From IMG/VR virus record IMGVR_UViG_3300048573_000442: a stretch of DNA of 64,000 nt; one strand, given 5' to 3'. The position numbers and the translations under genes were made by a program. The notes beneath the pieces were generated by a model. It worked only from the letters and a program-made list of their open reading frames with translations. It was not told the origin of the DNA and did no database searches. Each line of letters starts with the position of its first letter. Position 1 is the first letter of the stretch. Shown here piece by piece: positions 5,747-61,946 of this stretch. The DNA comes from a virus.

Positions 5747-6169
5747 TCACCTTGCGCCCTTGATAAAAATCTGCTTTTCACTATCAGTTCCTTTCAAAGA
5801 AACCTGCCAATTTGGCAACCATCTTTTAAACATATGGATATACAGCTTTATTCGATTACCGCCTTCAGCAATCATAGTAAATTCACCTGCGCCCTTTTGA
5901 ATAAGCAGTTCCATCATTTGCTTTACAAAGGAGAAGACTTTTTCTGGATTACCCGCTTTAGTCAACTTGTAGCCTATGTTGCCATTTTCTTCCTCATTAC
6001 CGAAGCTCACATCCCAGGCATTATGTTTTCTAGCCGCATTTAGGGGTTTACGAACGGCATCAAAAATAATAGTTAGTCCATTGATTTCTGCTTTGGCCAT
6101 AAAAGACTTTTCACCATTATGGACTATAGTGTATGGGACTTTACTGGATAGGATTTCAAATAATTTCAC
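5747..6169 (-). CDS. Hypothetical protein (140 aa), MKLFEIL N-terminus
   Basis: ORF track; N-terminus resembles the internal-protein-like tag seen elsewhere in the window. Confidence 0.5.
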   Translation of the reverse strand: MKLFEILSSKVPYTIVHNGEKSFMAKAEINGLTIIFDAVRKPLNAARKHNAWDVSFGNEEENGNIGYKLTKAGNPEKVFSFVKQMMELLIQKGAGEFTMIAEGGNRIKLYIHMFKRWLPNWQVSLKGTDSEKQIFIKGAR

Positions 6170-6199
6170 TTGGCGTTACCCCTAATAGTTTGCGACATT

Positions 6200-7093
6200 T
6201 TACGCCTGGAATGACAGAGTCAAATTAGTCAAAGTATTTGACTGCCCAGAAACCATTGTGGTGTTTGCAAACAGCGCACCATTCTGCGCTGAAACGGGAG
6301 CTTGCAGGGATGTAGCCGGTATTACATCATATGCAGCTTTAGTAACGCGAATGAACGTGGGAGTTCCACTGGCAATTGCGTTTGCAGTTTGGTTTGATAT
6401 GATGGATGCAGATAACCCAGAAACCGCAAAAAGCTCATTACTGGTAATTGCTTTGCTCCAGAGTTTAACTCCCGTGGGGGTTGCGCTACTATTAGATGGA
6501 ATTGCTCCGTCCCAAGCCTCAACTGTCACGGCTCGGTCGTATACTCCTGAGACAATGCTTATTTTTGAAAACGCTGCCATATGACCGTAACTGTTTCCTA
6601 ACGTCCCCGCGGTATTACCAGCCCAGATATTGACAATTTCGTTCGCAACGCTCGGGGAAACGCAGGTATCCCCAAACGCCGCTACACGAAATCGCATATC
6701 AGTTAAATTGACCGTTTGTCCATTGACCGCGGTAAGTGTGCTCACGATAGCTTTTGCACCCGAGGAAACTAATCCAACGTCGACATCAAGAAAAGGGCTG
6801 TTTCCATTGCCGAAATAAAACCTTATAAAAGAAACCGTGCCACTGGCAGTTGCAGTGAAACCTACGGAACCTGCTAAAGCGGAAACCCCGTTTGAACTGG
6901 AAAGCCACGTTCCTGAAGGTAGAGATTTTACTGCGCTCAAGGCCGTTATTCCAGAAGTAATCGTTGGGTCCCCTGGTCTTGTACCTGCAAAAATTTGCGC
7001 ATAATAAATGCCAGAACCCTGGCCGGGTGCGGTAGAAGTTAACGCTGTAACTATGGCTCCCCCGGCTAAACCTGTATTAAATGTTGCTCCCAT
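6200..7093 (-). CDS. Virion structural protein with two tandem copies of one beta domain
   Basis: I(F/W)xGxxP...A.ASGT.(S/T)FIR motif occurs twice; Gly/Ser/Thr-rich. Confidence 0.55.
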   Translation of the reverse strand: MGATFNTGLAGGAIVTALTSTAPGQGSGIYYAQIFAGTRPGDPTITSGITALSAVKSLPSGTWLSSSNGVSALAGSVGFTATASGTVSFIRFYFGNGNSPFLDVDVGLVSSGAKAIVSTLTAVNGQTVNLTDMRFRVAAFGDTCVSPSVANEIVNIWAGNTAGTLGNSYGHMAAFSKISIVSGVYDRAVTVEAWDGAIPSNSSATPTGVKLWSKAITSNELFAVSGLSASIISNQTANAIASGTPTFIRVTKAAYDVIPATSLQAPVSAQNGALFANTTMVSGQSNTLTNLTLSFQA

Positions 7094-7095
7094 GA

Positions 7096-40515: not shown

Positions 40516-40595
40516 AATTAAAACTGTCAGTTGCAACCTCTAAACATGTTCAGCAACTTATTTCATGTGTTCCGAAAGGTCTTGCCAACTTTTAA
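40512..40595 (+). pseudogene. Remnant start of a ninth LRR gene
   Basis: ATGA-coupled ATGAAATTAAAACTGTCAGTTGCAACCTCTAAACA, a deleted version of the paralogue 5/7 start; 27-aa ORF running into the convergent gene. Confidence 0.55.
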
Positions 40596-45958: not shown

Positions 45959-46213
45959 TTATTTTGCTGGCTTAACAACGTCTTTAAACACTACGCCTTC
46001 AGAACCATCCCATTCGCCGACGCCGATAGTCTCCTTGCGCTTATACGGCTTAGTTCCAATGAAAGCATTGCAGATGTCCTGGTCTCCATCAAACCAAGCA
46101 CCTGGCTGATATTTGCGAACGGCAGTTTTCCATGAACTATAAGTCGTGTAAACAGTTTCCCCCATATGGTTCTTTGCTTCTTTAAGATTTACTAGTTGTT
46201 TTAGTAATTGCAT
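45959..46213 (-). CDS. Hypothetical protein (84 aa)
   Basis: AGAGG RBS; LKQLVNLKEA N-terminus. Confidence 0.5.
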   Translation of the reverse strand: MQLLKQLVNLKEAKNHMGETVYTTYSSWKTAVRKYQPGAWFDGDQDICNAFIGTKPYKRKETIGVGEWDGSEGVVFKDVVKPAK

Positions 46214-46242: not shown

Positions 46243-46539
46243 TTATCTCTTGTCGTAATTAACGTGTATTACTTTTGCTTTAATTACGCCAAGGCCCTGA
46301 AGTATATGTTTTTTCAACCGCAATGTCAACTTTTCAGACAGGTCTTTTTGAAAGCCTAGATCCCTAGGTCTGTCTGCACAATCCGTCCTGAACTCTATAA
46401 CAGTTTGTGGCCCCTCATCTAATAAATGGATGCTAAAGATCTTACAAGCAATGAGTTCTTCTTCAGCAATGTGGTGCAGCATGTTTTCCCATTTTTTAAG
46501 GTGTTCTTCACGCTTAAGGAATTCTTTAAATGTCTTCAT
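46243..46539 (-). CDS. Hypothetical protein (98 aa), internal-protein-like tag
   Basis: MKTFKEFLKRE; ATGA coupling. Confidence 0.55.
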   Translation of the reverse strand: MKTFKEFLKREEHLKKWENMLHHIAEEELIACKIFSIHLLDEGPQTVIEFRTDCADRPRDLGFQKDLSEKLTLRLKKHILQGLGVIKAKVIHVNYDKR

Positions 46540-47186
46540 AAAATTTCTGCCAATCTTGGTTTAATGACATCATAAAATAGATTGCTTAAAGTATCTATTT
46601 TGTAATACTGCTTGCATTTCAAATGAATTTCATTGCCGTTATCGATGCATTCTTCAAGCTCTTCATTTACATTCCATCTAGCGTGTGAAAATTTTTTAAC
46701 TAGCATGTCTGCTGCCATAGTCTGACGCTGATCATAGTTGTATTGGTTTTCTTTATCAGCTGCGAATATTTTGCCAGATAAATAGGCTGAAGAGCCGTAT
46801 GCGTCTTTAAATGCGTCCTTGCCCGTATCAGCATTACAAACCCATTGAAATTCCCCAATTGGGAAAATAGCAAATACCTTTCCGTATTGTCTAGCATCGT
46901 TTTGTTGACCAGTAACAAACATCCAATTTCGAATAGGCTCGCCGACTAAATCAACAAAAAAATCATTCATTTTATCATGCAAGTACGTGCTTGAATCCCT
47001 AGGCCCGCCACGTAGCCTAAAATCCCTGATCTCCCAATCGGCAGACCCTCCAGATTCAGAGCCGCGATACATCAATTTGTTTCCGCCGGTTCCTTTTAGT
47101 TGCTTAAATAAAAATGAGCAGTCTTCTTCAAATCGTTTAAGATCAAAAGATTTTTGTTCGTTTAGGAAAGTTTTAAATGTTTTCAT
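46536..47186 (-). CDS. ADP-ribosyltransferase-like paralogue F (diverged)
   Basis: Start moved to MKTFKTFLNE at 47186; MYRG, RDSS, MFVTG...ARQYG..FAIFP, NEIHL. Confidence 0.45.
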   Translation of the reverse strand: MKTFKTFLNEQKSFDLKRFEEDCSFLFKQLKGTGGNKLMYRGSESGGSADWEIRDFRLRGGPRDSSTYLHDKMNDFFVDLVGEPIRNWMFVTGQQNDARQYGKVFAIFPIGEFQWVCNADTGKDAFKDAYGSSAYLSGKIFAADKENQYNYDQRQTMAADMLVKKFSHARWNVNEELEECIDNGNEIHLKCKQYYKIDTLSNLFYDVIKPRLAEIL

Positions 47187-47880
47187 ATTTAACCCATGGG
47201 TCGTTGATGACAATAGTTCCGTCTTCAGCAATCATAAAATTGCTGCTGTGTAAATCGTTTTGGAACCCGTTCTTGCGCCCAATTTGGACGACATCGAATA
47301 TAGTAGAGGCCAATTTAACTAATTGCTGTTGGCCCATATGGAGTATGAGGTACTCCAAACCTGATGAAATCTCTAGTGCTGTTCTCGTAAAAAACATTTT
47401 GCCTTTTCTTGCAAACAGCGACTGATTATCAATTTCTAAGGCAGCTGGATGTTCTATATAGGTCGTAACAGCTTTAAGATATTCGATCTTTTTGTTGTTA
47501 AATGCGTCTACCTCTGTTGATAAGAACCCAAGTGCGATGCCAGTGTGTTCTGATATAGAACCCATCTCAAAAAGGCGTTCAGATTTTGCTATTAGCACCT
47601 TGGTGCCAGTCTCTGAGTTAACAATTGTTTCCGGGGCGCCAATATCAGGGATAAATTGGTTATTTTTATTTGCCAAACAGTATTTTAGCCACTTGACAAA
47701 TACGCTTGACCTCGAATCGTTTAGTGGACCGATCGCCAACAACACTTCATGTTTTTCATTCATCCAGACCGTCTTATCATATCCACTAGCTTCCATGAAA
47801 TAGCCGCGATCCCTCATTAGATGAAACAACCAAGAACTATCATCAGGTGAAAAATCAGATTCAAATAGGCGATGTTTCAT
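47173..47880 (-). CDS. Atypical protein kinase paralogue 1 (T7 gp0.7-like)
   Basis: DLHSSNFMIAEDGTIVINDPW; start at ATGA-coupled MKHRLFES. Confidence 0.7.
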   Translation of the reverse strand: MKHRLFESDFSPDDSSWLFHLMRDRGYFMEASGYDKTVWMNEKHEVLLAIGPLNDSRSSVFVKWLKYCLANKNNQFIPDIGAPETIVNSETGTKVLIAKSERLFEMGSISEHTGIALGFLSTEVDAFNNKKIEYLKAVTTYIEHPAALEIDNQSLFARKGKMFFTRTALEISSGLEYLILHMGQQQLVKLASTIFDVVQIGRKNGFQNDLHSSNFMIAEDGTIVINDPWVKYENI

Positions 47881-48605
47881 TTGTACCATCCATCGGCTTT
47901 CTTTACAAGTACCTCTAATGGGATGATATTTGGCGACAAATATTTCTCAGCCTCTTCTCGCATCTGTTTTAAATATCTTTTCCCTACAGGATTTTTCAAA
48001 GGCTCACTAAAAAACCCCTGAACAGATTTAAAAATTTTCAAGATGGCTTTGTCGTCAAGGGCGCCATCATTTTCAACCTGCTTAAAAAAATCAACTTTCG
48101 CCTGTAGAAACTTTGCGTTTTCCAAATTGACTTCACTGACTTTGCGAATAAATTCTGCGTCAACTTTTCGTCCAGAAATATCAGTTCGAGATTTTGCCCT
48201 TTTAAGAGATGTTTCCAAGCTTGCGTGAACAAACACTACTCCTACATCATATCCTATAGATTCAAGAATGCCTATGCGATGCAATATTTGGGAAACATTA
48301 TTCGAAGTGCTATCAACAAACAGTGGCAGCATCGAATTCATATAGCCTGTTAAAGATTTTTTTGTGATTTTAATCGATGAATCTCTTAATTCGGGCCACG
48401 TTTCAGAGGATACTTCCTTATCAAGTTTAAAGGCCATGAATTCGGTTGCAATGTCAGTATTGACTACTTTTGGGGAAATTTGCCCCCTTAGGTTCCTGAC
48501 TGTGTAACTCTTGCCGGCACCTGGCAAGCCAATCACGAAAACAGCTTTAAGAATGCCAGCATCATTAATGCCTTCTGTTATGTAGGTTTTGAAATTTGTT
48601 GTCAT
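47877..48605 (-). CDS. Zeta-toxin-like P-loop kinase
   Basis: GLPGAGKS, VNTD, FVDST, VFV...ETSLKR...R. Confidence 0.65.
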   Translation of the reverse strand: MTTNFKTYITEGINDAGILKAVFVIGLPGAGKSYTVRNLRGQISPKVVNTDIATEFMAFKLDKEVSSETWPELRDSSIKITKKSLTGYMNSMLPLFVDSTSNNVSQILHRIGILESIGYDVGVVFVHASLETSLKRAKSRTDISGRKVDAEFIRKVSEVNLENAKFLQAKVDFFKQVENDGALDDKAILKIFKSVQGFFSEPLKNPVGKRYLKQMREEAEKYLSPNIIPLEVLVKKADGWYK

Positions 48606-48609: not shown

Positions 48610-49299
48610 TTAAAAGGATGCCCATGGATCGGTGATAACTAAAGTGCCGTCTGAAGCAATCATAAAGTTACCGGAATGTAAATCTAGAAAGCCGCTGCTA
48701 GGAGTTGCATTAATAATATCTATTAAAGTTCCTAGCAAAAAGTCAAAATCCTCGACGCTTAACACCAATAGCGCCATGCTTTCGGTAATATCCCCACTTG
48801 CTTCTAATCTAGCTTTTGCGTCCGCAATGACTTTTGATTTTAGGTCTTTTTGTAAAATGCTAGTAGAGCCAATAGCACTAGTGCAAGCTTTCACAAGTTC
48901 ATGAATTGCTTCTCGTATCTGGCTGAGTTCGGAAGAGACTTCAAACAAGCGTTCGATGTTGGCGACGATAAACTTCTCACCGCTTATAGTAAGTGGTTTT
49001 GAAAAACTAATATTTGGTAAATGGGGATTGGATGAATGTTGAAAACAAAAACTTACCCACTTTTTGAAATTGGCTGTTTCCCTATAGCTTTCGTCATGTT
49101 GGATTATTTTGACGTTATGTGTTTTTGGATTAACAAATGCTGCTTTAAAAGCGCCAGCTCTCAAAAATTTGTAACCTAAGCCTTTCATATGTTCTAAAAG
49201 AATGCTGCTTCTTCTAGATTCATCATTAAAATCCTGTTCTTCTGTGCTGATGGACTCGACCAAATATTTTTTGAAATTGCGCGCCATCATTATGCCCAT
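48610..49299 (-). CDS. Atypical protein kinase paralogue 2 (T7 gp0.7-like)
   Basis: FLRAGAFKAAF, VKI, NPHLPNI, DLHSGNFM, ITDPW. Confidence 0.75.
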   Translation of the reverse strand: MGIMMARNFKKYLVESISTEEQDFNDESRRSSILLEHMKGLGYKFLRAGAFKAAFVNPKTHNVKIIQHDESYRETANFKKWVSFCFQHSSNPHLPNISFSKPLTISGEKFIVANIERLFEVSSELSQIREAIHELVKACTSAIGSTSILQKDLKSKVIADAKARLEASGDITESMALLVLSVEDFDFLLGTLIDIINATPSSGFLDLHSGNFMIASDGTLVITDPWASF

Positions 49300-49985
49300 G
49301 GGTCAGTTATGACTATTGTTCCGTCTTCGCCAAGCATGAAATTTCCTGGATGCAAATCGAGAATTGAGTTACTAGGTGAAAAATCAATAATGTCTATTAT
49401 GGTCCCTATCAAAGAATCGATATCTTCAACACTTAATAGCAGTAATGAATGAGCATCATTTTCAAATTCGTCATTGGAGCCAAAATTTTCAAGAGAGCTT
49501 TTTATTTCAGCTATTAATTCGTCTCGGGGTTTATTTTTGCCGCCGCTCGAAGCTCTTGATGTTTCGCATAAATCCGCAATTTCAGTCAACGCGAAACCGA
49601 TAGAAACAATACTAGAACTGTCTATCGAAAATAGTCTTTCAATGGTGGCAATCTGAAACACATGCTTCGTGCCATCTTCACCTCCTATTTTTAACGGGCG
49701 ATCAAGTTTTATAATCGGGAGATGCGGGTTGTTCTTATGTTGTTTGCAAAAATCTATCCAGCGAGTAAAAGTACTAAATGAAGCTGGATTATTCTTGTAC
49801 AAAATTATTTTTGTCGAGCTAGAATCCATATACGCAGCTTTTTCAACCCCACTGCCGAGAAATTTGAACCCGTTTAGAACCATATATTTGTGCAAAGCAA
49901 AAGCACGTTCGCGATCAGCGAAACTCCCCGATCTCAAATACTTGGGGGCTTCATGGCTTTCGGCTAGAAAATGTTTAAAGTTCAT
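49290..49985 (-). CDS. Atypical protein kinase paralogue 3 (T7 gp0.7-like)
   Basis: LGSGVEKAAY, TKI, NPHLPII, DLHPGNFM, ITDPW; start moved to MNFKHFLAE. Confidence 0.75.
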   Translation of the reverse strand: MNFKHFLAESHEAPKYLRSGSFADRERAFALHKYMVLNGFKFLGSGVEKAAYMDSSSTKIILYKNNPASFSTFTRWIDFCKQHKNNPHLPIIKLDRPLKIGGEDGTKHVFQIATIERLFSIDSSSIVSIGFALTEIADLCETSRASSGGKNKPRDELIAEIKSSLENFGSNDEFENDAHSLLLLSVEDIDSLIGTIIDIIDFSPSNSILDLHPGNFMLGEDGTIVITDPWA

Positions 49986-50028: not shown

Positions 50029-50928
50029 TTATTCCTCACGCGATTTGATTTCAATGACAACAGCTTTAAACAATTCTATCGGTACAAGGAAAGCCTTCCC
50101 AGAAAACCAGCACTCCCTACTCTCCGGCAGCTTATCCCCATAATTCGCAACTGACAGATTGAGCGAATCAGGCGTGAATACTGCATCAGCTATCGCCTGA
50201 GTTAGGTTGCTGTGATTCTGTGTGATAAACTCACGAATGTACGTAACGCTTACATTCGGGAAAGTGCGGACAAACGCATCTATTACATCGTCAATAGGGG
50301 CTTTAGCAATAGTCTCTTGAAATTGATGCAAACTGACAACGCTTTCGTATCTATTGGCCAAAGGCAAAGTATGTGTTCCTACTCTATTCACAAACACAAA
50401 AAGTTTGTCACTAAGGTAATCTAACGGCACTTCGCGGCCGAAGAAGTTAACATCGCAATTTAGGAAATCGCGCTTATCACAAAATGTAATTAACGAACTT
50501 GAATTTTTCCCAACCGGGACCACCACTGAAACCGCTCCGTACGAACTAGCAGATGATAGAGAAGTAGAGCAGATGAGAGATTTTGAACGATCTGGAATTC
50601 CTGCCTGATTTAACGGCCCTGAAATTGCCATCATCAATTGATACACGTTGTCAGTATCTTTCGACGTTCTTATGCCAGTAGATGAATCAATATACGATAG
50701 TTTCGGCGCTCTTGGGCTGCTGAGGTCCCTTGAGCTTTTTGAACTCCCTCGATATAAAATGCCGCCATTTTTTAATGCTGATAAGAATCCTGGGCAATGC
50801 TTAAGCAAAGCGTCAGTTGCACTCACGATATCCTTTTCATTGAAGTGTTCAGACTTATTCAATAAGGTCCTTTTTCTCCATGCCTTCACTACGGCTTCAT
50901 TCAGTGCAAGTATTTCTGCCAATTTCAT
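50029..50928 (-). CDS. ADP-ribosyltransferase-like paralogue E
   Basis: LYRG, RTSKD, SLICSTSLSSASSYG, RECWF. Confidence 0.6.
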   Translation of the reverse strand: MKLAEILALNEAVVKAWRKRTLLNKSEHFNEKDIVSATDALLKHCPGFLSALKNGGILYRGSSKSSRDLSSPRAPKLSYIDSSTGIRTSKDTDNVYQLMMAISGPLNQAGIPDRSKSLICSTSLSSASSYGAVSVVVPVGKNSSSLITFCDKRDFLNCDVNFFGREVPLDYLSDKLFVFVNRVGTHTLPLANRYESVVSLHQFQETIAKAPIDDVIDAFVRTFPNVSVTYIREFITQNHSNLTQAIADAVFTPDSLNLSVANYGDKLPESRECWFSGKAFLVPIELFKAVVIEIKSREE

Positions 50929-50931: not shown

Positions 50932-51378
50932 TCAATCCAGCTGTTTAATGTTGCCGTCTACTGTTATCATGCGTAATATTTCTTCACGGTTTGCAACGAG
51001 AATATTGTTAGTAGTTTTCCCGCCATTGGCATATGGAACAAAACTTTGATTTGCACGCTTTCTATCAGTCTTTGCTTTTGATCTGCTATTTACAGCGCTG
51101 AGTGCAATGTTGAGATAATTTGCAGCTACCTCGGCATTTCGAGCAGCATATCTTGGCTCAATGACTTCTAAATAATCCTGCTGGGTTTTAAATGCATCTA
51201 GCGCCGCAGTATAAATTTCATCAATTCTTTGCTCTATAAGAACATCATCGGCATCTTTGTGATCCACTGGCGGCTCTGTTGCAGAAAGTTCCTGCTTGGG
51301 CTGTTCAACCATGCCATATTCTTCTTCAATGTCAAACTCTTCACTCATGTTAAATGCTTGTTCCAATGGATTTCTCAT
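50932..51378 (-). CDS. Probable terminase small subunit (T4 gp16-like)
   Basis: Helical PR...EVAANYL segment and C-terminal TTNNILVANREEIL resemble gp16-family NN..VGST.EL. Confidence 0.55.
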   Translation of the reverse strand: MRNPLEQAFNMSEEFDIEEEYGMVEQPKQELSATEPPVDHKDADDVLIEQRIDEIYTAALDAFKTQQDYLEVIEPRYAARNAEVAANYLNIALSAVNSRSKAKTDRKRANQSFVPYANGGKTTNNILVANREEILRMITVDGNIKQLD

Positions 51379-51857
51379 TTTCGTGTTCCTTTAGTTCCTC
51401 TAGACTTAATAGCACCTTTAGTTTGTCTCGTAGACGGCCGTTTTTGTGCTTGTGCAAACAATTCGCGTTCAGTGACCAGCCTAAATCGAGCGCCAATGGC
51501 TTTTGCAAGATTTTCTGCAGCTTGCCACTTCGCAGCGTTTCTGATGAGCATAAGCTTATCGTAATTTGATTTAGCTTCTGACATCATTGCTTCTTTTAAT
51601 GGCTTAATCTCAACAATTTCTAAAGTGTTGTTAGTATACTGGACTAAAAAGTCTGGCCAATAATGTTTGACTTGCTTAGTAATTGGGTCCAAATATGTTA
51701 TATTTAGATTTTTCGGTTCACTGAACCATTTAGACACATGAATAGAATTATCTAGTGCCCGCATATAAGCTATTTCCCAACTAGAGCGGGCAACAATTCG
51801 CCTTGCATCCCCTGCATATTTCTTTGGGTTAGTTGGAACAAAAACGAGATTTGCCAT
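51375..51857 (-). CDS. Head completion nuclease (T4 gp4-like), copy 1
   Basis: FVPTNPKKY.G...I.ARSSWE...M, SE, YWPDF, VEIKP, KW.AA. Confidence 0.8.
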   Translation of the reverse strand: MANLVFVPTNPKKYAGDARRIVARSSWEIAYMRALDNSIHVSKWFSEPKNLNITYLDPITKQVKHYWPDFLVQYTNNTLEIVEIKPLKEAMMSEAKSNYDKLMLIRNAAKWQAAENLAKAIGARFRLVTERELFAQAQKRPSTRQTKGAIKSRGTKGTRK

Positions 51858-51859
51858 AA

Positions 51860-52300
51860 TTATTTCTTAGCCTTTTTAACGCCTTGGTGGAAAATGCTTT
51901 TTTCGGTAAGCACGCGAAATTTCATTCCTCGCTCTTGGCAATAAATTGCTGCGCTCTTCCATTTAGCTTCATTGACAACCAATGCATCCTTTGATCTCTG
52001 GCTTTTAGCAAATTGTTTGTCAGATTCATGAAGTGGTTTAACTTCTACCAATTCTTTAATTAGATTTCCGTCTTTGTCCATGTATTCGACAAAGAAATCC
52101 GGAAAATAGCGGTGCACTTTACTATCGAGTGGACTCAAATAAGGGATAACTATTTCTTCTGAACCCCATTTTAAGACATCTGGGCGACTGTCAAAATACT
52201 TCATGCATGCAACTTCCCAAGAAGAACGGGCAAAAATAGCATTTGGATCCCCAACGTATTTGGTGGGGTTTTTAGGTATGAAACGAGCGTTAAGCGCCAT
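51860..52300 (-). CDS. Head completion nuclease (T4 gp4-like), copy 2
   Basis: FIPKNPTKY.GD...ARSSWE, WGSEE..IPY.SP.D..VHRYFPDF, VEVKP. Confidence 0.85.
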   Translation of the reverse strand: MALNARFIPKNPTKYVGDPNAIFARSSWEVACMKYFDSRPDVLKWGSEEIVIPYLSPLDSKVHRYFPDFFVEYMDKDGNLIKELVEVKPLHESDKQFAKSQRSKDALVVNEAKWKSAAIYCQERGMKFRVLTEKSIFHQGVKKAKK

Positions 52301-53719: not shown

Positions 53720-54310
53720 TTAAAGATTACCGCCCAATGCAGTACCATAGCCAGCACCAAGCAGTTCTTGACGTGCATGGTCATAACGAAGTTGCAAACT
53801 AATTGTTGCAGCAGTTGAATCAGAGTAATCCATATCGCCATAATCAACCGATGCGATAAAGCAGCCTTCAAGTTTCCAACGCTCAACTACGCCTTCGCCA
53901 CCGTCTAGGGCCTCAAGGATAGTTCCGAATTTGTAATCAGAACCCGTAGCAGCTTGAGCTAGCCACTCGCCAGGAAGATCTCCGCCGATCAAACGCTGTT
54001 GAGTTTCCAGCTGACCCTGAATGGCACCTGAAGCCAAACCGGTAATATCGTCTTCAACCGTTAATGAAATCGGTTCGAAAGTGTGCTTTCCAGCAACATA
54101 GGCAGTGGAGTTATAGCGGTGCATCGTCACTTGTTCAAATGACAGGTTCGGACGCTGAACGTTAGTTGCCTGACGAGTAAGTTCGCGTGAAGATGCGCCG
54201 GGTACCAAACGCGCTAAGCCCACAAAGGTTACTTGCCAGCGGTGCTTTAGCTTAGGGTGAAGTATGCCGGAACCAGCGGCAGGAATACCAATTTGTGATA
54301 ATGTCGACAT
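53720..54310 (-). CDS. Tail tube protein (T4 gp19-like)
   Basis: PKLKHRWQVTF, RPNLSF, YVAGK.TFEPISLTVEDD, WKLEGCF, L.YD.A. Confidence 0.85.
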   Translation of the reverse strand: MSTLSQIGIPAAGSGILHPKLKHRWQVTFVGLARLVPGASSRELTRQATNVQRPNLSFEQVTMHRYNSTAYVAGKHTFEPISLTVEDDITGLASGAIQGQLETQQRLIGGDLPGEWLAQAATGSDYKFGTILEALDGGEGVVERWKLEGCFIASVDYGDMDYSDSTAATISLQLRYDHARQELLGAGYGTALGGNL

Positions 54311-54368
54311 TTTTTCTCCTTGAATAAGTAATGCAATCGCCCGAGTGGCAAATGTTTAAATCATTGCC

Positions 54369-54376
54369 TATTTATG
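54369..54376 (-). promoter_or_regulatory. Late promoter-like CATAAATA for the tube gene
   Basis: 59 nt upstream of 54310. Confidence 0.5.
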
Positions 54377-54403
54377 GGAACAATCAAAAAACACACAAAC
54401 CTC

Positions 54404-55216
54404 TTAATTTAGGCTATCTAAGAATGAACTATACGCTGTTGTAACAGGAACTCCTGACTTTGCAATCAAGTGAAACGGGACTAAAATATATCCATCAGAA
54501 TCATAGAAGAATATTTCGTTGCGCGACGTAATTGCTTCGGCAAAGCTTTCGTTGTTCTTATAATAATCTAGAGCAAACAGCTTTATCGCCTTAATAAGAT
54601 CAGCGTGCTTTAGCTTTAAAATATTTCTATCTGAGCATTTACGAGCAGCTGCTTCTGTATGTTGTTCGGCATTTCCGTCGAGATTGTGAACCCAAACAGC
54701 TGATGAAACACTTCCTATAATCGTGAAAAGATTTTCAAAGAACTCGATTAGTTCAAAAGCCGTAATAGGGAATTTACTACGCGGCAACAAATCCCTAATA
54801 CTTTCGGCAAAAAACTCAAGGCCTCCGTCTTCGCCAACATAAGAATCTTGTAGTTTTTTAGACCATGCCCACTGAAAATTTCCACATGGGAAGCAAAATG
54901 CTAAATGTTTTGCGTACTTAGAGGCCTCTGTCAAGGAACCGACTGCAAAAAAGGATCGTTGGCGAATATCAGGTATGCCATATGCAGCGTCAATTGCGGC
55001 GTTGAATGCGAAACTGAATTCTTGGCTTGAATCTCTTGGCGGACGGTATTTGGGATGCGGAATTATTAAAGCTTTTTCAACAGGCCTACTTACAGATCTG
55101 AACAATGCTTTGCCATCAGACAGCGCTAAAAATGGTTGACAGTGTTGCTTAATCAGCTCTGAGGCGTTTTTAAGTAGGTCGTCCTGCTCTGTCAAAAATT
55201 GCCTAAACTGGGTCAT
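54404..55216 (-). CDS. ADP-ribosyltransferase-like paralogue G (diverged), between sheath and tube
   Basis: FRQFLTE tag; LFRS, RDSS, SFFAVGS...ASKY...FCFP, NEIFF. Confidence 0.4.
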   Translation of the reverse strand: MTQFRQFLTEQDDLLKNASELIKQHCQPFLALSDGKALFRSVSRPVEKALIIPHPKYRPPRDSSQEFSFAFNAAIDAAYGIPDIRQRSFFAVGSLTEASKYAKHLAFCFPCGNFQWAWSKKLQDSYVGEDGGLEFFAESIRDLLPRSKFPITAFELIEFFENLFTIIGSVSSAVWVHNLDGNAEQHTEAAARKCSDRNILKLKHADLIKAIKLFALDYYKNNESFAEAITSRNEIFFYDSDGYILVPFHLIAKSGVPVTTAYSSFLDSLN

Positions 55217-55566
55217 TTTAAATTTTCGATTTTATAACGGGCTTTAAAAGCTGTTGCAATAACTGCATCCCACTCATTTTGAATAAACGAATCTTGTGGG
55301 ATTTCGGTTTTTGCTGTTTCTGCCCATTCAGTAAAGTTTTTAATAAAAGCTTCTGCGTCGTTAGTAGGAAAACCATTTGAATCGGGAGTCGTATCCTGCA
55401 TGACCCCATATTTTCCCTGGTACATCTCTGCTAAGCCATCGATAAGTTCTATTAGCGCATCGTAAAAATCATTAAGGGCCACGTGAACCGCAAATGATTT
55501 CGTTTTAAGGTGCAGAGCGTGAGAAATATCTCTAGCTGCAAAAAGATTGGCAATGATTTTGTCCAT
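55213..55566 (-). CDS. Small ferritin-like four-helix protein (DUF5856-like)
   Basis: HALHLKTKSFAVHVALNDFYD...D.LAE.YQGKYG. Confidence 0.65.
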   Translation of the reverse strand: MDKIIANLFAARDISHALHLKTKSFAVHVALNDFYDALIELIDGLAEMYQGKYGVMQDTTPDSNGFPTNDAEAFIKNFTEWAETAKTEIPQDSFIQNEWDAVIATAFKARYKIENLK

Positions 55567-55590
55567 GTTTTTCCTGTTAGCAACACAACA

Positions 55591-55598
55591 TATTTATC
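55591..55598 (-). promoter_or_regulatory. Late promoter-like GATAAATA
   Basis: 25 nt upstream of 55566. Confidence 0.5.
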
Positions 55599-55605
55599 CA
55601 CTTAA

Positions 55606-55632
55606 AGGGAAGGTTCTTTTAGAACCTTCCCT
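55606..55632 (-). terminator. Hairpin/terminator after the sheath gene
   Basis: 12-bp perfect stem AGGGAAGGTTCT/AGAACCTTCCCT, 3-nt loop. Confidence 0.65.
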
Positions 55633-55647
55633 GTCCAGCGAAACTTG

Positions 55648-57486
55648 TTAAGAAATTTCTGCGCCAGTTGACAATACTCGCAGTGGGATGTGCACGAATT
55701 CTGCAACCTTCGTTGGCTTAATTGCAACCTCAAGATACAGTTCATTATTGTCAATTCTGAACGGGGTGTTATTTGACTCATCACAGAGGGTGGCGAAGTC
55801 ATATAAGCCGCGTTTAGTCAACACATCATTTAGCAAGCCATCGGCCATGGACTTAATGTTGTCGCGAGTCACCTTATCATTTGGTTCAAACACGAACGGG
55901 AATGAACCTTTACGAAGCTGACGTCTAAGGAACATAACCAGTCTAATCACGTTGACGCGATCAAGGGCTGAAGTAACAGGCGATGAAGTTTTCTGCCCCC
56001 ATACCAAAAGGCCGCGACCTGGGAATTGAACAATCGGGTTGATGTTTCTAAATGATTCATACAAGCCATCACGCTGACCAATGTTGAGGTTGGCTTCCAC
56101 GAAAGTAGTTGCTGAACCCAGGGTTCCAGAAACGTAACCGACTTGAGAAACTCCAGTCACGCGACCGCGGTTTACGCCAGCAGGAGCAAACCAGATGTAT
56201 GATTGATTGTCACTATAGGCATAAGTGCGAAGAGCGATACCTGATGGGGCAACGCACACATTGCGGCCGTCCAAGTTGCTTGCCAAGCCCCAAGGGTAGT
56301 AATAAGCGGCGTTCTGTGACTGAACCCGTGCAGATGTCAGTGACCAAGTTGGAACTTGCTCTGGGGTTTTATCGACCGGGGTATCTGCGATAACCATTGC
56401 TTCTTCTAAAACGTCATTGCTAAGAGCCACGAGTTCGTCGACTACTTCATGATAACCAGGGCACAGGATCAAATTGTATTCGTAAATTTCGGAACGAACT
56501 TCTGTGTTGCTGTTGATTTCTGCCTGCAGAGCGGTCACAATTGAAGCGCGGCGAGCTGCATCATTGGCGCCAAGCGGATTAAAGATGCTTACGCTAGCCA
56601 AGTTGACAGTAAACACGTCGCCTGCAACGAATGGGACTGTACCTGCAACAGCCGTAAAGTTCAGTTCGCTTGCGGTGAAAGGAACGTTTAGGGTGCCAGT
56701 GCCAATTGAACCAGACACAGAACCGGCGACATCAAATATTGATGCGCTTGTAAACGTTACAGTGATGGTCTCTGCAGTAGAATCCTGAGTTGTTGCAATG
56801 TCAATTAGTTCACCATTACCAACACCAGCAAATGCAGCTTGATATAACAGTTCAAATTGGAAATAATCGCCCGCGACAAACGGTGTGGTCCCTGCGTTAA
56901 CAGTGAAGCTGACGATAGATGAGCTAAAAGCTGCGCCTACGGTACCTGCACCGAGCGTTCCAGAGTCTGAACCGATAACAGTAAACTGTGTTGCGCTTGA
57001 CATCACTACTGAAATTGTTTCTGGGCGAACCATTTGTGAAGGGGCTGCAATAGCTGCAATAGTCCCGTTGCCAGTACCTACTCTGGTTACATCGCCAGAA
57101 ACTGGGGTCCCAGCGGAAATAAATGTGGTGGTTTCGTCGCTTAGGTCAATATTAGCACGTACAACATATGCACGATTGCCAACTCCAAGGAATTGATTAA
57201 GGGCAAAAAGACCGTATTCATTTCGAGCATCACCGTGATACTCATTTCCAGAAACATCGTTTCTGAATGCTGGTACGCCATACAATTGAATACTTTGGCC
57301 AAGTGAAGTAACGGTCCTTACTGTGCTGTGCTCGTAGGTTGCTCCCGCTGGTGTAACACCGTTGGGCTGCATCTTGTTTTTACGAGTTGCAATAAAGAAA
57401 AGTGGAACCGTCGGTGCACTTGAAGGGATATAAAACGATTCGTCTATTAGCGTAACTGAAACGCCTGGGCTGATTAATGATGCCAT
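55648..57486 (-). CDS. Tail sheath protein (T4 gp18-like)
   Basis: LISPGVSV..ID.S, YYPW, VAPSG, WFAPAG.NRG, INPIV, WGQKT, ALDRVNV.RL, FEPND, IKPTKVAEF. Confidence 0.95.
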   Translation of the reverse strand: MASLISPGVSVTLIDESFYIPSSAPTVPLFFIATRKNKMQPNGVTPAGATYEHSTVRTVTSLGQSIQLYGVPAFRNDVSGNEYHGDARNEYGLFALNQFLGVGNRAYVVRANIDLSDETTTFISAGTPVSGDVTRVGTGNGTIAAIAAPSQMVRPETISVVMSSATQFTVIGSDSGTLGAGTVGAAFSSSIVSFTVNAGTTPFVAGDYFQFELLYQAAFAGVGNGELIDIATTQDSTAETITVTFTSASIFDVAGSVSGSIGTGTLNVPFTASELNFTAVAGTVPFVAGDVFTVNLASVSIFNPLGANDAARRASIVTALQAEINSNTEVRSEIYEYNLILCPGYHEVVDELVALSNDVLEEAMVIADTPVDKTPEQVPTWSLTSARVQSQNAAYYYPWGLASNLDGRNVCVAPSGIALRTYAYSDNQSYIWFAPAGVNRGRVTGVSQVGYVSGTLGSATTFVEANLNIGQRDGLYESFRNINPIVQFPGRGLLVWGQKTSSPVTSALDRVNVIRLVMFLRRQLRKGSFPFVFEPNDKVTRDNIKSMADGLLNDVLTKRGLYDFATLCDESNNTPFRIDNNELYLEVAIKPTKVAEFVHIPLRVLSTGAEIS

Positions 57487-57540
57487 GATTTGCCTCTCCT
57501 ATAAATGTTCTAAGCAAAAAGAATTGTCTTTCGATACGAA

Positions 57541-57548
57541 TATTTATG
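57541..57548 (-). promoter_or_regulatory. Late promoter-like CATAAATA for the sheath gene
   Basis: 55 nt upstream of 57486. Confidence 0.5.
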
Positions 57549-57623
57549 AAGTTGCAGATTTTGGGGCGAAATTCGAACCTTTTTTCAAAAACTGTGCAAC
57601 ATTGAATAAGAAACTCAGTTAAA

Positions 57624-57631
57624 GATAAATA
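57624..57631 (+). promoter_or_regulatory. Late promoter-like GATAAATA for the plus-strand gene
   Basis: About 31 nt upstream of 57663. Confidence 0.5.
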
Positions 57632-57662
57632 GGCAATCCACGTTACTAAAAGGATTCCAACC

Positions 57663-58289
57663 ATGAAAATGACACTTCTAGCTTCCTTCATCACTGAAGC
57701 CCGTGATAAAGATTTAAAATACACTGAAAAAGTGGTCAAGAATAAAATTGACCGCGTTACAGTTGAACTCCACGGCCACCATTCTGGTGCGATGTCTGCG
57801 TTAACCAATCGTTACGACCGCTTAGATCGTGCTATTAAAGAGATGACGATTCGCCGTAATGAAATGAACGAAAAAATCAAAGATAAAGTTACTGATCTTT
57901 TTGACGCCGAGGATATTGTTTTGACGCGTGTTGTTGAAACGGTATCATTCACTTTGACCTTATCAAAATTGGTTAAGGCTGCAGAACAGAAAGACAAGGT
58001 CGTAGTGGATTACGAATCCATCGCAAAAGAACTGGCCAAGCTAATTCCAGATGAATTACAGAAAGCTGTTCAAGAAATTACAGATCGATATACAGAGGTT
58101 TCGCTAGCTGCCGATAAATCTCCGGCTTTAAGAGTAAAGAACAAGAACGATGACAAGTTGACCGAAGACGTTTTGAGTTCCCTGAAGCGCTACATGGAAA
58201 GCATCCATAAATGGGTGTCAAGCATGGTAAAATGGGGTAATAAGTACGACAAGAAGCTTGATAAACTTAAAGAAAAAATAAAAGCATAA
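57663..58289 (+). CDS. Coiled-coil hypothetical protein with FITE tag
   Basis: AAGGA RBS, own promoter-like motif and terminator; opposite strand to neighbours. Confidence 0.65.
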   Translation: MKMTLLASFITEARDKDLKYTEKVVKNKIDRVTVELHGHHSGAMSALTNRYDRLDRAIKEMTIRRNEMNEKIKDKVTDLFDAEDIVLTRVVETVSFTLTLSKLVKAAEQKDKVVVDYESIAKELAKLIPDELQKAVQEITDRYTEVSLAADKSPALRVKNKNDDKLTEDVLSSLKRYMESIHKWVSSMVKWGNKYDKKLDKLKEKIKA

Positions 58290-58290
58290 G

Positions 58291-58312
58291 AAAAGGGGCC
58301 TAGGCCCCTTTT
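58291..58312. terminator. Bidirectional terminator
   Basis: Perfect palindrome AAAAGGGGCCTAGGCCCCTTTT between convergent genes. Confidence 0.8.
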
Positions 58313-58323
58313 TCAATTTTTGA

Positions 58324-59073
58324 CTAGCGCCTATCGACAGTTATTGTCCCATACGAGCTTCCTGGTTCAAATGGGACCATTTGTCCATTTTCGTCAAATT
58401 CGTTGACTTGGAACCCGTCTAAGTTACCTATTTGCACAAAAATCTTCCTAACCATTTCATCCTTAATGTCTATTGGAACTGAAATATAGAACGGAATGAC
58501 GAATTGCAAAGACCAAACAATAATACGCCTATCGCCACCTGGTGGAAAATTCTCTTCATTATTAATTCCGACTAATTCAACCGATGCAATTTTAGTCCAA
58601 TCGAAGGCCGCATCTGATGTCTGTATCTGTAGCGTAGGATCAAATAGCATAAGCAGCTGCTCGAGAATTTGATGCATCTGATTTGAATTGGATGCGTAGA
58701 TAGACAGATCCACATTCATGATATACGGGATTGGCATAACCCTTACTACAGTTTTTAAATCATTTGGAAAAACTCCACCAGCTGGCAAATAAACCCTGCG
58801 GTCTACGACTCCTGTCCCCTTTTTATTAGGCGACAAATTCAGTCCCGTCATATTTGCAGACATGATAGGTAACGAAAACGGCTTATTTTGTGTATTGCCT
58901 GCCTGTAACGCAGCGACTACGCGATCTCTGCTACCTACAGTGATAGGAACTCCTAAAAATTCCTGATCCCCGCATTCATTTCTACCAGTAGAAACTGTAA
59001 GACCTGCAAAAATGTTGCAGAATTGGAGAAGAGCAGCTTTCATTTGCCCTTCATAAAAGTGCTGATTAATCAT
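58324..59073 (-). CDS. Tail terminator / sheath stabiliser (T4 gp15-like)
   Basis: HFY...FCNIF, VPI, LP.MS, PIPY.M...LSIY...ILEQ.L..FDP. Confidence 0.8.
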   Translation of the reverse strand: MINQHFYEGQMKAALLQFCNIFAGLTVSTGRNECGDQEFLGVPITVGSRDRVVAALQAGNTQNKPFSLPIMSANMTGLNLSPNKKGTGVVDRRVYLPAGGVFPNDLKTVVRVMPIPYIMNVDLSIYASNSNQMHQILEQLLMLFDPTLQIQTSDAAFDWTKIASVELVGINNEENFPPGGDRRIIVWSLQFVIPFYISVPIDIKDEMVRKIFVQIGNLDGFQVNEFDENGQMVPFEPGSSYGTITVDRR

Positions 59074-59088
59074 GATTTCCTATTTAGT

Positions 59089-59550
59089 CTATGTGTTTAC
59101 AATTTCGCCGTCCACGTTCCCGATTCCGTCAAGCGTTTTCAGCATCGGATTGTTAAAGCACCAAAAATCTCTACCAACTTCTCTAGGTGAACCTTTTAAA
59201 GATGTCAATTGGTTTTCAGAGCACTTAAAGCTCCCACCGACTTCTCTTGGGGCACCTTGTAAAGAGATCAATTTGTTGGCATGGCACCAAAACCCTCCGC
59301 TTACTTCTCTCGGCGCACCTTGTAAAGATGCCAATTGGTTGCCAGAGCAATCAAAATATTTTGTTACTTTGCCAAATTGAACAGGGATTACAGTTAAAGA
59401 CTTCCCATATAAATCTACTCCGCCATCCACATCAACAGTCAAGTCATCATTGATTGCGTAGTTCGTTATTTTATATTTATTTAGGATCGATTCAACTTCT
59501 TCTTTAGAAGAAGGAAATCTGGTATTTTCAAACAGCTGTTTTAACTTCAT
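59089..59550 (-). CDS. LRR-like paralogue 9 (4 repeats)
   Basis: MKLKQLFEN cap, same 21-aa repeat; ATGA overlap with the gp14 stop. Confidence 0.85.
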   Translation of the reverse strand: MKLKQLFENTRFPSSKEEVESILNKYKITNYAINDDLTVDVDGGVDLYGKSLTVIPVQFGKVTKYFDCSGNQLASLQGAPREVSGGFWCHANKLISLQGAPREVGGSFKCSENQLTSLKGSPREVGRDFWCFNNPMLKTLDGIGNVDGEIVNT

Positions 59551-61394
59551 AACTTCTTCTTTAAGCTTTGCTTGGTATCTGATTGCAAAATGTTTCTAAC
59601 ACTTGGGCGATGTGAACTATAATCTCCGCGCCGGTCAGTTTCCATGAATATCCAACGATTTTTGATCGCGGAGAATTTATAAAGCCTTGGCGGGATTTTT
59701 GTTTCAGGCGCATAATATAATCTGAAATAATCCCCGTCAGAAACCCCAGCGGCCTCTGGCAATTTATAACCTTCTCCATAAGGTTCACCATTACTTGGCA
59801 ACCCATCTTCAATATGTGGCCCCTGAGGTCCTGCCGGGAACGGCTGCTGGGCGACAGCTTCTGGCTGCCCTTTTGCATTTGCACTTGGCAATGCGGCCTT
59901 TAATGGCTGGCCGACAGTCACTATCAAATCATCTGACCCGACTTCTGGAACTGCATCTGCTGCAATTTTAATGATCTCTTCAGTTTGTGTTAACGGCGTA
60001 GTATCCAGCTGATTATTAAACTGCAGCAAATCATCTGACAGCAAATATTTTTGCGTGTTTAAAGAACCAAAAATATCGCGGGTTTCTTGTGATGGCAGTG
60101 CCTGTTGTGCCTGAAACCTATAAAGCATTGGTTGCCATTGTGGGCCAAAGCCTTCAGATGCCCATCCCGTATCAGTAACTTCTAAGAATTTTCTAACCGG
60201 ATTCAAATTGTGATCATACTGCATTTCAGGAACAACTTCAATAATGTCGCCGACGACTATTGGCCGCCCGAGTAATTGAACCATACTATTAAATGAAGCA
60301 GTAAAGGAATACTGATCTAATATATTAATGCCGAATCTGGACAAATCTGACGTTGAATCTGCAGGATTGAATTGAACTCTTAGGGTTATTGGCGAATCCG
60401 CATAATCTCTATCACGATTTTCGTTAAAAAACAGGTCTTGAATATTATTGATATCAGTGGGAACCGAATCTCTTACATCGAATTCTGAAACTTCCCAACT
60501 ACCTGTTCCCGTAAACATTGTCGGGACCACACGAACCGCATTTGCTAGCAGCGCCGATTTAAGCCCAAGTGTTTGTGGTAATGGCGACTGGACTAGATTA
60601 AAAATTCCGGCACGCTTCCACACATAATCGATTGCAACAGTAAACATATCGCCGATCGAATAGGGAGTAGAACCAGCAATAACCGAGAAATTCAAAATTG
60701 TGCTGTTAAATGCTTCGCCAACAGTCGCAAAGCCAAAGGTTCCAGGGATACCGCTAACAAAGACTTCAAATTCAAAAGAACTCACTGCTATAAGAGTTAC
60801 CGTGCATGGCGCTGCGTTGACACCAACTGACCTAATAGTTACCGACCCATTACCAATGCCAGAATAAAGCGGCTGTGCAACCGTGCATGAACCATCTGAT
60901 ATATCAAGGCGAACCTGTTTTGCCCATCTATTTGGATCAGTAGATTGAGTAAGCGCAACTGACCCTATTTCAAGCATTTTGGGCTTACTGGGAGCGTAAG
61001 CGGGTTGGCCATTATGCAACTTAAACCCGAAACTTGCGCCTATCCAGGATGATCCTGGCAGTCCAGGACCCTGCATAGAAGATCTCCAAGAACCGCCAGA
61101 ATTTATCCCTGCTAATGGGAACCCAGGATACGCAGACGTTGCGAATAGGGTTGATTCAGATAATAGTGAACCTTTGCCCTGTTCATGAACGCCAAGCAAC
61201 TTGTAAATGTTTATTGGCGCACCACTAATATTTAACACTTCAGCAACATAGGTTTCTTGGCGCTTCCGATCATTTAATTCACAAATATCTGGAACTAATG
61301 AATTTATTTGCCATGTCCCCACGCACAGCTCTTGCGCAACATATGGTGATGGTTGCGTTCCGCTGTTTATTGACCCGTTGCAATTATCTGGCAT
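59547..61394 (-). CDS. Neck protein (T4 gp14-like) with inserted domains
   Basis: AEVLNISG..I, DLFFNENRDR.Y, LSRFG, P..GDII. Confidence 0.7.
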   Translation of the reverse strand: MPDNCNGSINSGTQPSPYVAQELCVGTWQINSLVPDICELNDRKRQETYVAEVLNISGAPINIYKLLGVHEQGKGSLLSESTLFATSAYPGFPLAGINSGGSWRSSMQGPGLPGSSWIGASFGFKLHNGQPAYAPSKPKMLEIGSVALTQSTDPNRWAKQVRLDISDGSCTVAQPLYSGIGNGSVTIRSVGVNAAPCTVTLIAVSSFEFEVFVSGIPGTFGFATVGEAFNSTILNFSVIAGSTPYSIGDMFTVAIDYVWKRAGIFNLVQSPLPQTLGLKSALLANAVRVVPTMFTGTGSWEVSEFDVRDSVPTDINNIQDLFFNENRDRDYADSPITLRVQFNPADSTSDLSRFGINILDQYSFTASFNSMVQLLGRPIVVGDIIEVVPEMQYDHNLNPVRKFLEVTDTGWASEGFGPQWQPMLYRFQAQQALPSQETRDIFGSLNTQKYLLSDDLLQFNNQLDTTPLTQTEEIIKIAADAVPEVGSDDLIVTVGQPLKAALPSANAKGQPEAVAQQPFPAGPQGPHIEDGLPSNGEPYGEGYKLPEAAGVSDGDYFRLYYAPETKIPPRLYKFSAIKNRWIFMETDRRGDYSSHRPSVRNILQSDTKQSLKKKL

Positions 61395-61418
61395 AGTGTT
61401 CTACCCTATTTTGGGGTT

Positions 61419-61946
61419 TCATGTTAAATCGCTCGCTATTTCGTCTTCGACACTGCCGATTCCGTCAAGAGACGTCAAATTCGGATTCTTAGAACAATTA
61501 AAACTTCCACCTACTTTTCTAGGAGCGCCCCGTAAAGATGTTAATCGATTGCTATTGCACCAAAACCCGCCATTAACTTCTCTAGGTGCGCCTTGCAAAG
61601 AAGTCAAATTGTTGTTAGAGCAATCAAAATCCCCACTCACTTCTCTAGGAGCACCTTGTAAAGATGTCAATTGATTAGCAAAGCAATTAAAACCTCCACC
61701 CACTTCTTTAGGCGCTCCTTGTAAAGAAGTCAGATGGTTAGCAGAGCAATTAAAATCCCCATTTACTTCCCCGAATTTAACAGGAATAGCTGTCAGTTGT
61801 TGCCAATACAGATCCACGTCCCCGTCAACATCAACCGTCAAGTCGTTGTTGATAACGTAATGCTTGATTCGGTATTTTTCCAGTACCTCTTCTACTTCTT
61901 GTTTAGAAGTGGGAAAGTGCGATTCAAATAATTGTTTTAATTTCAT
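61419..61946 (-). CDS. LRR-like paralogue 10 (5 repeats)
   Basis: MKLKQLFES cap, same repeat, SDLT end. Confidence 0.85.
   Translation of the reverse strand: MKLKQLFESHFPTSKQEVEEVLEKYRIKHYVINNDLTVDVDGDVDLYWQQLTAIPVKFGEVNGDFNCSANHLTSLQGAPKEVGGGFNCFANQLTSLQGAPREVSGDFDCSNNNLTSLQGAPREVNGGFWCNSNRLTSLRGAPRKVGGSFNCSKNPNLTSLDGIGSVEDEIASDLT

Follow-up and report, generated by a model that had tools for sequence, protein, structure and literature searches.

A short leader resembling the T4 capsid-targeting sequence starts about 25 genes of an uncultured giant myophage and probably marks proteins carried in the virus particle

Tagged genes and their families

The window analyzed here, a 64,000-nucleotide (nt) stretch of IMG/VR virus record IMGVR_UViG_3300048573_000442, derives from an uncultured giant myophage of the T4 superfamily, as judged from T4-type genes recognized by Pfam and PHROG profiles. 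About 25 of its genes, roughly a third of those in the window, start with a short N-terminal leader that resembles the capsid-targeting sequence (CTS) of the T4 internal proteins (IPs), and these tagged genes, located among late structural genes or directly downstream of them, probably specify a sizeable stock of proteins that are made in advance and travel in the virion. We put the probability that the leaders are capsid-targeting, protease-cleavable sequences of the T4 IP type at roughly 0.68. An earlier, sequence-only reading of this stretch had quoted a series of N-termini, every one of which was found at its gene, and had spoken of about 25 unrelated proteins; the number of genes stands, and "unrelated" proved an overstatement, as trimmed-sequence grouping and profile comparison resolved only 7–8 unrelated families.

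Families were delimited by comparing the proteins with their first 20 residues removed, which revealed a leucine-rich repeat (LRR) family of ten, family B with five members, family C with three, and singletons. Profile comparison further added 46536 (89% probability) and 54404 (78%; genes are named here by their first coordinate), which share PHROG 11975, to family B, such that the cargo tallies as ten LRR proteins, seven members of an ADP-ribosyltransferase (ART)-like superfamily, three of a kinase family resembling T7 gp0.7, and single examples of a P-loop kinase and a DUF5824 protein, with three unknowns besides.

Eight LRR paralogues follow one another on the (+) strand, with leaders (here and below, a hyphen marks the leader end) reading MKLKQLFE-S in paralogues 1 (34724..35368), 3 (36015..36788), 5 (37489..38265), 7 (38966..39622) and 8 (39619..40515), MKLRQLFE-S in paralogue 4 (36785..37492), MKLKQLFG in paralogue 2 (35365..36018; Glu to Gly) and MKLKQLFD in paralogue 6 (38262..38969; Glu to Asp). 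Paralogues 9 (59089..59550; MKLKQLFE-N) and 10 (61419..61946; MKLKQLFE-S) lie on the (-) strand. All ten are predicted LRR proteins, based on internal repeats seen as multiple BLAST segments, on LxxLxLxxN-type units detected with an LRR profile, and on a Pfam LRR_4 match of 31.3 bits (cut-off 27) for 39619-40515, with a weaker one for 61419.

Family B comprises, all on the (-) strand, the ART-like genes 40558..41406 and 41393..42247 (both MKTFKTFLE-AKAE), 43053..43835 (MKFKTFLE-AKAE) and 50029..50928 (short leader MKLAE-ILALNE-A), together with 43825..44808, in which a 60-residue N-domain (MPLTALKHLAKKA...) is followed by GLKE and then by an internal tag, LRFSEFLKE-S. Its two remote relatives, also (-), are 46536..47186 (MKTFKTFLNE-Q) and 54404..55216 (MTQFRQFLTE-Q), the latter between the sheath and tube genes. 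The AlphaFold2 (AF2) model of 40558, with a predicted local distance difference test (pLDDT) score of 91, gave ART folds as its top VIA-align matches (Arr, diphtheria toxin, PARPs, TreX), all of them weak (Z ≤ 6.1). Residue R51 is invariant, and S95, S97 and E243 are kept in at least 90% of 40 sequences; these conserved residues and the weak fold matches hint at an ART of the R-S-E class. Foldseek and a profile search against PDB sequences returned nothing significant for family B, no Pfam family matched it, and no relation to T4 Alt was detected (hhalign probability 0.1%).

Family C (47173..47880, MKHRLFE-S; 48610..49287, MARNFKKYLVE-S; 49290..49985, MNFKHFLAE-S; all (-)) has no Pfam match and is kinase-like by PHROG 15752 (T7 gp0.7 kinase), which two members match with E values of 1.6e-9 and 1.7e-7. 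Further tagged genes on the (-) strand encode a P-loop kinase (Zeta_toxin/AAA_33; 47877..48605, MTTNFKTYITE-G, with an RsoM2USA orthologue starting MTTFKEYLLE), a DUF5824 protein (45474..45956, MTITFKQFISE-T) and a 98-residue protein assigned to no family (46243..46539, MKTFKEFLKRE-E), while another protein without family assignment between the gp15 and sheath genes, at 57669..58289 (+) (57663 in the comparisons below), starts MTLLASFITE-A. A weak candidate with a GTG start, 5747..6169 (-), reads MKLFE-IL amid tail-fibre and baseplate genes, and 45959..46213 (-) is a possible member that begins MQLLKQLVNLKE followed by A and, with L-K-E at residues 10-12, fits the generic L-x-E rule only.

A separate peptide was seen beside family C. 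The genes upstream of three tagged genes (47190-47215, 48610-48625, 49290-49310) share a C-terminal …DPW[AV], where the DNA reads GACCCATGGG just ahead of the next start codon. This is the conserved C-terminus of family C and its neighbors, overlapping the start region of the next gene.

The leader matches the T4 capsid-targeting sequence

Pooling the leaders of the window, of Ralstonia phage RsoM2USA and of 71 IMG/VR loci around family B homologues (n = 164, including 135 seven-residue forms) gave the consensus M-[IK]-T-F-K-Q-[FY]-[LI]-x-E, then A/S/G. Among the seven-residue forms, the Glu is residue 10 in 91 of 135, position -6 is F in 122 of 135 and position -3 is F or Y in 131 of 135, and information falls below 1 bit directly past the Glu, where the +1 residue is mostly Ala, Ser or Gly. 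The conserved positions F(-6), F/Y(-3), L/I(-2) and E(0) correspond to T4 CTS residues 4, 7, 8 and 10. In T4, the first ten residues of IPIII are enough for head targeting, with residues 4 and 7 controlling targeting and 8 and 10 controlling processing, and the gp21 protease cleaves after L/I-x-E (PMC9026906). The leaders described here are likewise N-terminal peptides of about ten residues in which positions 4 and 7 are hydrophobic or aromatic, and they end in the L/I-x-E cleavage motif followed by a small residue.

Running the same patterns on the T4 genome (NC_000866) as a control revealed that the strict pattern (given below) recovers IPII and IPIII, both MKTYQEFIAE, and that a looser one adds two proteins known to be cleaved by gp21, Alt (MELITE) and gp24 (MAKINELLRE). 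The T4 precedents that the sequence-only reading had cited, namely the MKTYQEFIAE-type leader of the internal proteins, the gp21 cut after L/I-x-E and the packaging and injection of Alt, are all correct by these sequences and by the literature (PMC9026906). Because Asp at CTS position 10 blocks processing in T4 while keeping targeting (PMC9026906), the two LRR paralogues with G (35365) or D (38262) in place of the leader Glu might, by analogy, be packaged uncleaved.

The T4 control also brought up two starts outside the known cargo. Gene 61.1 (NC_000866 18966-19130) begins with the CTS-like MKTFKEFIKE, nearly identical to the leader of 46243 in the window, and uvsW.1 (NC_000866, 114210 onward) begins MLLEFKQFLYE. 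Both gene products are small and of unknown function, and going by their starts gp61.1 and UvsW.1 may have been overlooked as head cargo of T4 itself.

The leader is restricted to N-termini and to the late region

Evaluating the window as a whole, we found that the strict pattern M.{0,5}[FLY][KRQAES].[FYL][LIF].?E stands at the start of 19 of the 79 genes, whereas its frequency inside proteins (4 matches) predicts 0.10 (binomial P ~1e-36), and a six-frame scan found just one internal Met with the pattern. The distribution by region is uneven, as leader genes account for 20 of the 38 genes in the late and structural part (34724-64000) and for none of the 33 in the replication block (11231-34580). 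One of the outcomes that the sequence-only reading had named as refuting its claim, a motif equally common on replication and metabolic genes, is thus not seen in the window. Five members were missed by the patterns (35365, 38262, 43825, 46243 and 47173), and in 46536, 47173, 48610 and 49290 the leader lies at an internal Met of the longest open reading frame (ORF), which is likely the true start.

A conserved start of this kind could in principle be a translation-initiation or messenger RNA (mRNA) feature, with A/U-rich early codons boosting late-gene expression. The leaders are indeed rich in AAA, ACA and TTT codons, and many tagged genes have no clear Shine-Dalgarno sequence and overlap the upstream stop codon. 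Against this explanation, the hydrophobic spacing and the invariant Glu are amino-acid features, leader codons differ synonymously between families (which points to selection on the peptide), the highly expressed sheath and tube genes of the window have no leader, and an internal copy of the tag follows the 60-residue domain in fused forms. An mRNA-level feature fits these observations poorly and seems to us scarcely credible.

A portable leader in three forms

Homologues of family B from metagenomes begin in one of three ways, with an aromatic IP-type tag, a short form MK[LIV]xELFE, or a 60-residue domain (MPxTALKHLAKKA...AEHLW...) followed by G-[LIM]-[SK]-E and an internal tag copy, which is the form of 43825 in the window. 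The 60-residue domain also exists as a stand-alone small ORF, at RsoM2USA 260019-260246 (L016:19-246) and at two further loci (L056:6462-6707 and L071:8944-9231), and such stand-alone proteins end tag-like (ITFKDFIIAE-GET, LSFKEFLNAKL). The RsoM2USA copy, which ends ITFKDFIIAE-GET, is part of the head-morphogenesis cluster, with the prohead protease gene on one side and the scaffold gene on the other, and in other phages the domain is fused in frame to the ART-like gene, sometimes retaining that gene's start Met. A tblastn search of phage records with the 63-residue N-domain gave no match at database scale.

The LRR family shows the same exchange of leaders, with the short form MKLKQLFE in the window and MKTFKQFLSE, MAMNFKEFLNE or MKLHEIS on RsoM2USA homologues. 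One cargo domain with differing leaders, and one leader on differing domains, is the signature of a portable signal. The leader also appears to be structurally detachable from its cargo, as residues 1-13 of the AF2 model of 40558 form an extension below pLDDT 50 and the folded domain begins near residue 20, and as one cargo domain takes any of the three leader forms. Beyond the window, the strict leader occurs on 14 of 466 ORFs in the complete RsoM2USA genome (0.97 expected), where an M-K-L-x-E-[ILV] form is found on 37 ORFs, mostly of one large paralogous family, and on 131 of 1255 distinct proteins of the 71 IMG/VR loci (2.8 expected), these 131 falling into 25 BLAST families with amidoligase and AAA proteins among them.

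This spread bears on whether the shared N-termini are a mere trace of common descent and of cassette shuffling via a conserved 5' segment, with a functionless peptide. Many tagged genes are tandem paralogues, and modular shuffling is known in hyperplastic regions of T4-type genomes (PMC2839356, PMC4122927). However, the leader stands on at least seven families without detectable similarity past residue 20, its codons are not conserved, conservation ends exactly at the Glu, the leader persists across phages whose cargo domains are 25-35% identical, and it predicts virion membership in Agrobacterium phage Atu_ph07 as described below. Paralogy alone fits these observations poorly, and we regard it as quite improbable.

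Leader-bearing proteins in the virions of relatives

Two relatives with virion mass spectrometry (MS) allowed the leader to be compared with virion content. In RsoM2USA, for which ten abundant virion bands were identified by MS (PMC8504454), the band protein ORF89, homologous to the LRR proteins of the window (E 1e-8 to 2e-10 outside the leader), starts MKTFKQFLSE, and ORF132, another abundant band, starts MKTFKQFL. For Atu_ph07, all 140 rows of the virion protein table (table S5 of PMC6102473) were assigned to ORFs via mass and gene order, with 136 matching gene calls. A short-leader pattern, M-[KRQ]-Phi-x-x-[LI]-x-E, occurs on 20 of these 136 virion proteins versus 1 of 659 other ORFs (Fisher P 2.4e-15, a value that overstates independence because the pattern was fixed after part of the list had been seen and because gp53-62 are paralogues), which places 20 of the 21 short-leader ORFs in the virion proteome. 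All 11 members of gp53-gp63, which carry MRWEQLTE and variants, were detected, with 3-31 unique peptides each.

Leader-trimmed comparison connects the cargo of the window to these Atu_ph07 virion proteins. Family B, including 40558, matches gp53-59; 46536 matches gp60-62 and gp408; 54404 matches gp57 and gp62; the P-loop kinase 47877 matches gp53; and 57663 matches gp475 (E 1.5e-18). No virion-detected homologue in Atu_ph07 or RsoM2USA was found for family C, 45474, 46243 or 5747. The sequence-only reading had held that the ART-like, kinase-like and LRR families are all loaded into the head and delivered at infection; virion presence is borne out for homologues of the ART-like proteins, the P-loop kinase, 54404 and 57663 (Atu_ph07 MS) and of the LRR proteins (RsoM2USA ORF89), and the rest of that claim we infer.

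In the same Atu_ph07 table, several leader proteins peak in gel slices far under their predicted mass. The 87-kDa gp53 peaks in slice 9 beside 20-kDa proteins, the 41-kDa gp63 in slice 8 beside 30-kDa proteins, and gp482 and gp483 (32-34 kDa) in slice 12, which suggests internal proteolytic processing. Together with conservation that stops at the Glu, these low masses are an indirect hint that leaders may be removed. The Atu_ph07 paper makes no mention of N-termini, motifs or cleavage (PMC6102473).

The main rival to a T4 IP-type signal is that the leader does send proteins to the virion, where they would belong to its outside or its tail (as whiskers, decoration or baseplate accessories), the leader serving as an assembly or chaperone handle. 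Virion MS cannot tell head interior from tail or surface, LRR proteins typically bind external ligands, the tagged genes 54404, 57669, 59089 and 61419 sit between tail genes, and the Atu_ph07 authors took their cluster as novel structural proteins. Weighing the other way, the leader agrees with the head-specific T4 CTS at functionally mapped positions, ART-like and kinase folds make little sense outside the cell, and the 60-residue leader is homologous to the small ORF that RsoM2USA holds between its protease and scaffold genes. On balance we consider an external location unlikely, and continue with the T4 IP-type reading.

A protease suited to that reading is present in relatives, as a Peptidase_S77 (gp21) gene was found in RsoM2USA, XacN1 and Atu_ph07. 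In RsoM2USA the capsid protein itself starts MNLFE, and more L-x-E sites follow within the N-terminal part.

Genomic context

Evaluating the surroundings of the tagged genes, we found two gp4-like head-closure genes (51375..52300 (-); phrog_218, head closure, E 1e-34) immediately upstream of the tagged block on the same strand, and the block is co-oriented and tightly packed behind them. Pfam and PHROG profiles further identified a T4-type tail tube (53720-54310), tail sheath (55648-57486) and gp15 sheath stabiliser (58324-59073), all (-), such that the span 53720..59073 holds tube, sheath and gp15 genes with tagged genes interspersed. The block at 11231-34580 consists of nucleotide-metabolism and replication genes. 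By its sheath protein, the nearest named relative is RsoM2USA (55% identity), followed by XacN1, Stenotrophomonas phages and PA5oct, and megablast found no near-identical DNA in the phage collection. The sole perfect copy of the T4 late-promoter consensus on the (+) strand of the window, TATAAATA at 34674..34681, lies 43 nt upstream of the first LRR gene of the array.

Several neighboring genes drew attention on their own account. Between the tagged 54404 and the tail sheath gene, 55213-55566 is a DUF5856 / 'starvation-inducible regulator'-like (PHROG 858) gene. In the replication block, a UvsX/RecA homologue is split over 21740-23456, with 23190-23456 aligning to residues 4-63 of RsoM2USA UvsX and 21740-23239 aligning to residues 64-334 starting only at its own residue 204; the roughly 200 additional residues that separate the two matching stretches could represent an intein or inserted element. 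The NrdA homologue at 15517-18264 has 915 residues versus 776 in RsoM2USA, and as its best alignment covers residues 439-880 only, it may contain an insertion in its N-terminal half.

Discussion

If the leader acts as its T4 counterpart does, a mechanism can be proposed. Tagged genes would be expressed late, and the short amphipathic leader, hydrophobic or aromatic at its positions 4 and 7, would dock its cargo on the scaffolding core of the assembling prohead. A gp21-type prohead protease would then cleave past L/I-x-Glu at the leader end, releasing the mature enzyme or binder within a head filled with DNA; ejection of the cargo would probably accompany that of the DNA. Three interchangeable leaders would serve this route: the IP type M-x-T-F-K-Q-F-L-x-E with Glu at residue 10, the short M-K-Phi-x-x-L-x-E or M-K-L-x-E, and the 60-residue domain with its internal tag. 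The cargo set would consist of the ART-like superfamily, two kinase-like families, the ten-member LRR family and small unknowns. That the ART-like, kinase-like and LRR cargo sits inside the head, has its leader cut off, is ejected and serves in host takeover, we infer from likeness to the T4 IPs and Alt.

Besides the limited independence of the Atu_ph07 comparison and the silence of virion MS on location, several points weigh against this reading. Cleavage after the Glu is, for all members, extrapolated from T4, and three family B genes read F-L-E with no spacer residue, which is not an exact L/I-x-E. The phage's own protease, scaffold and capsid genes would lie outside the 64-kb window, and a Peptidase_S77 gene is seen in relatives only. 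The virion evidence comes from two relatives, the window phage being known here from its genes alone, and the Atu_ph07 preparation holds traces of RecA-like, ssDNA-binding and terminase proteins. The 7-mer ATAAATA occurs at about chance frequency, which makes the promoter evidence weak, and 7-mer counts were rejected as support for late promoters. Lastly, XacN1, a relative with the protease, shows no leader enrichment (1 of 435), and a leader is also missing from the chitinase, lipase and M23 peptidase that its virion contains; it was dropped as a second supporting relative, and the leader is to be seen as lineage-restricted rather than general in the group.

More tentatively, this giant T4-superfamily clade may possess a portable packaging code of at least three leader forms by which dozens of pre-made proteins per virion would be injected with the DNA as an effector arsenal, the LRR array with its variable surfaces possibly providing diversified inhibitors of host defence proteins. 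Were this so, the injected proteome of uncultured phages could be read from the leader alone. Even without that extension, a leader that acts as in T4 would be a sequence-only predictor of the proteins that a giant phage carries into the cell. The leader labels about one third of the window genes and most of the 'hypothetical virion proteins' in one Atu_ph07 cluster, and would, if the reading is true, give the members of such ORFan lists a common identity as pre-made candidates for host takeover or anti-defence, explain the abundance of non-structural proteins in jumbo-phage virion proteomes, and offer natural leader variants for T4-type protein-delivery engineering.

Comparing these leaders with known systems, the closest is the T4 CTS itself. 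The CTS of IPI, IPII and IPIII, cleaved by the gp21 prohead protease, is reportedly the subject of Mullaney and Black (1996). Reviews of T4 describe how a conserved CTS on diverse internal proteins lets T4-like phages package varied proteins (PMC3012670, PMC9026906), and since this concept is established, the surprise of the present finding is limited. The two leaders are near-identical N-terminal peptides of about ten residues (MKTYQEFIAE in T4 versus MKTFKQFLSE or MTITFKQFISE here), sharing hydrophobic positions 4 and 7, the L/I-x-E motif at residues 8-10 and a small residue past the Glu, and both occur on otherwise unrelated cargo in T4-superfamily phages of groups with a Peptidase_S77 protease. 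They differ in that about 25 genes in one 64-kb window carry the leader here versus three IPs and Alt in T4, in that the cargo here is mostly enzymes of 150-300 residues and LRR proteins whereas T4 packages small basic proteins, and in that at least two more leader forms occur here (the short M-K-Phi-x-x-L-x-E and the 60-residue domain with internal tag), in a system known through genes only.

T4 Alt offers a second parallel, being an enzyme of ART-type fold with a short N-terminal leader ending I-T-E that travels in the head and, once ejected, modifies host proteins (PMC9026906), although family B has no detectable sequence relation to Alt and takes its ART label from weak fold matches and the R, S and E residues. 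The giant heads of phiKZ, 201phi2-1 and SPN3US similarly hold many proteins, namely inner-body and ejection proteins, cut after Glu at a short motif by a gp21-like protease, some of them ejected (PMC9026906, PMC13282480), yet these phages belong to another lineage, their motif is S/A-x-E rather than L/I-x-E, and they have long propeptides with no common N-terminal consensus reported, in contrast to the portable ten-residue tag seen here. In the Dar system of phage P1, an anti-restriction protein is packaged in the capsid and delivered by means of an N-terminal signal of DarB (residues ~6-10; the first 30 suffice), which carries a reporter in as well (PMC9024508), but this signal is unrelated in sequence, serves few proteins, works in a stepwise assembly, and has no tie to an L/I-x-E protease site. 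In the literature searched, the Atu_ph07 paper included, no account of a leader like this one turned up for the Atu_ph07/RsoM2USA group, which is not proof of absence. What is new here, set beside these systems, is the scale, the types of cargo, the extra leader forms, and a leader by which many virion proteins that lacked an explanation in cultured giant phages can be accounted for.

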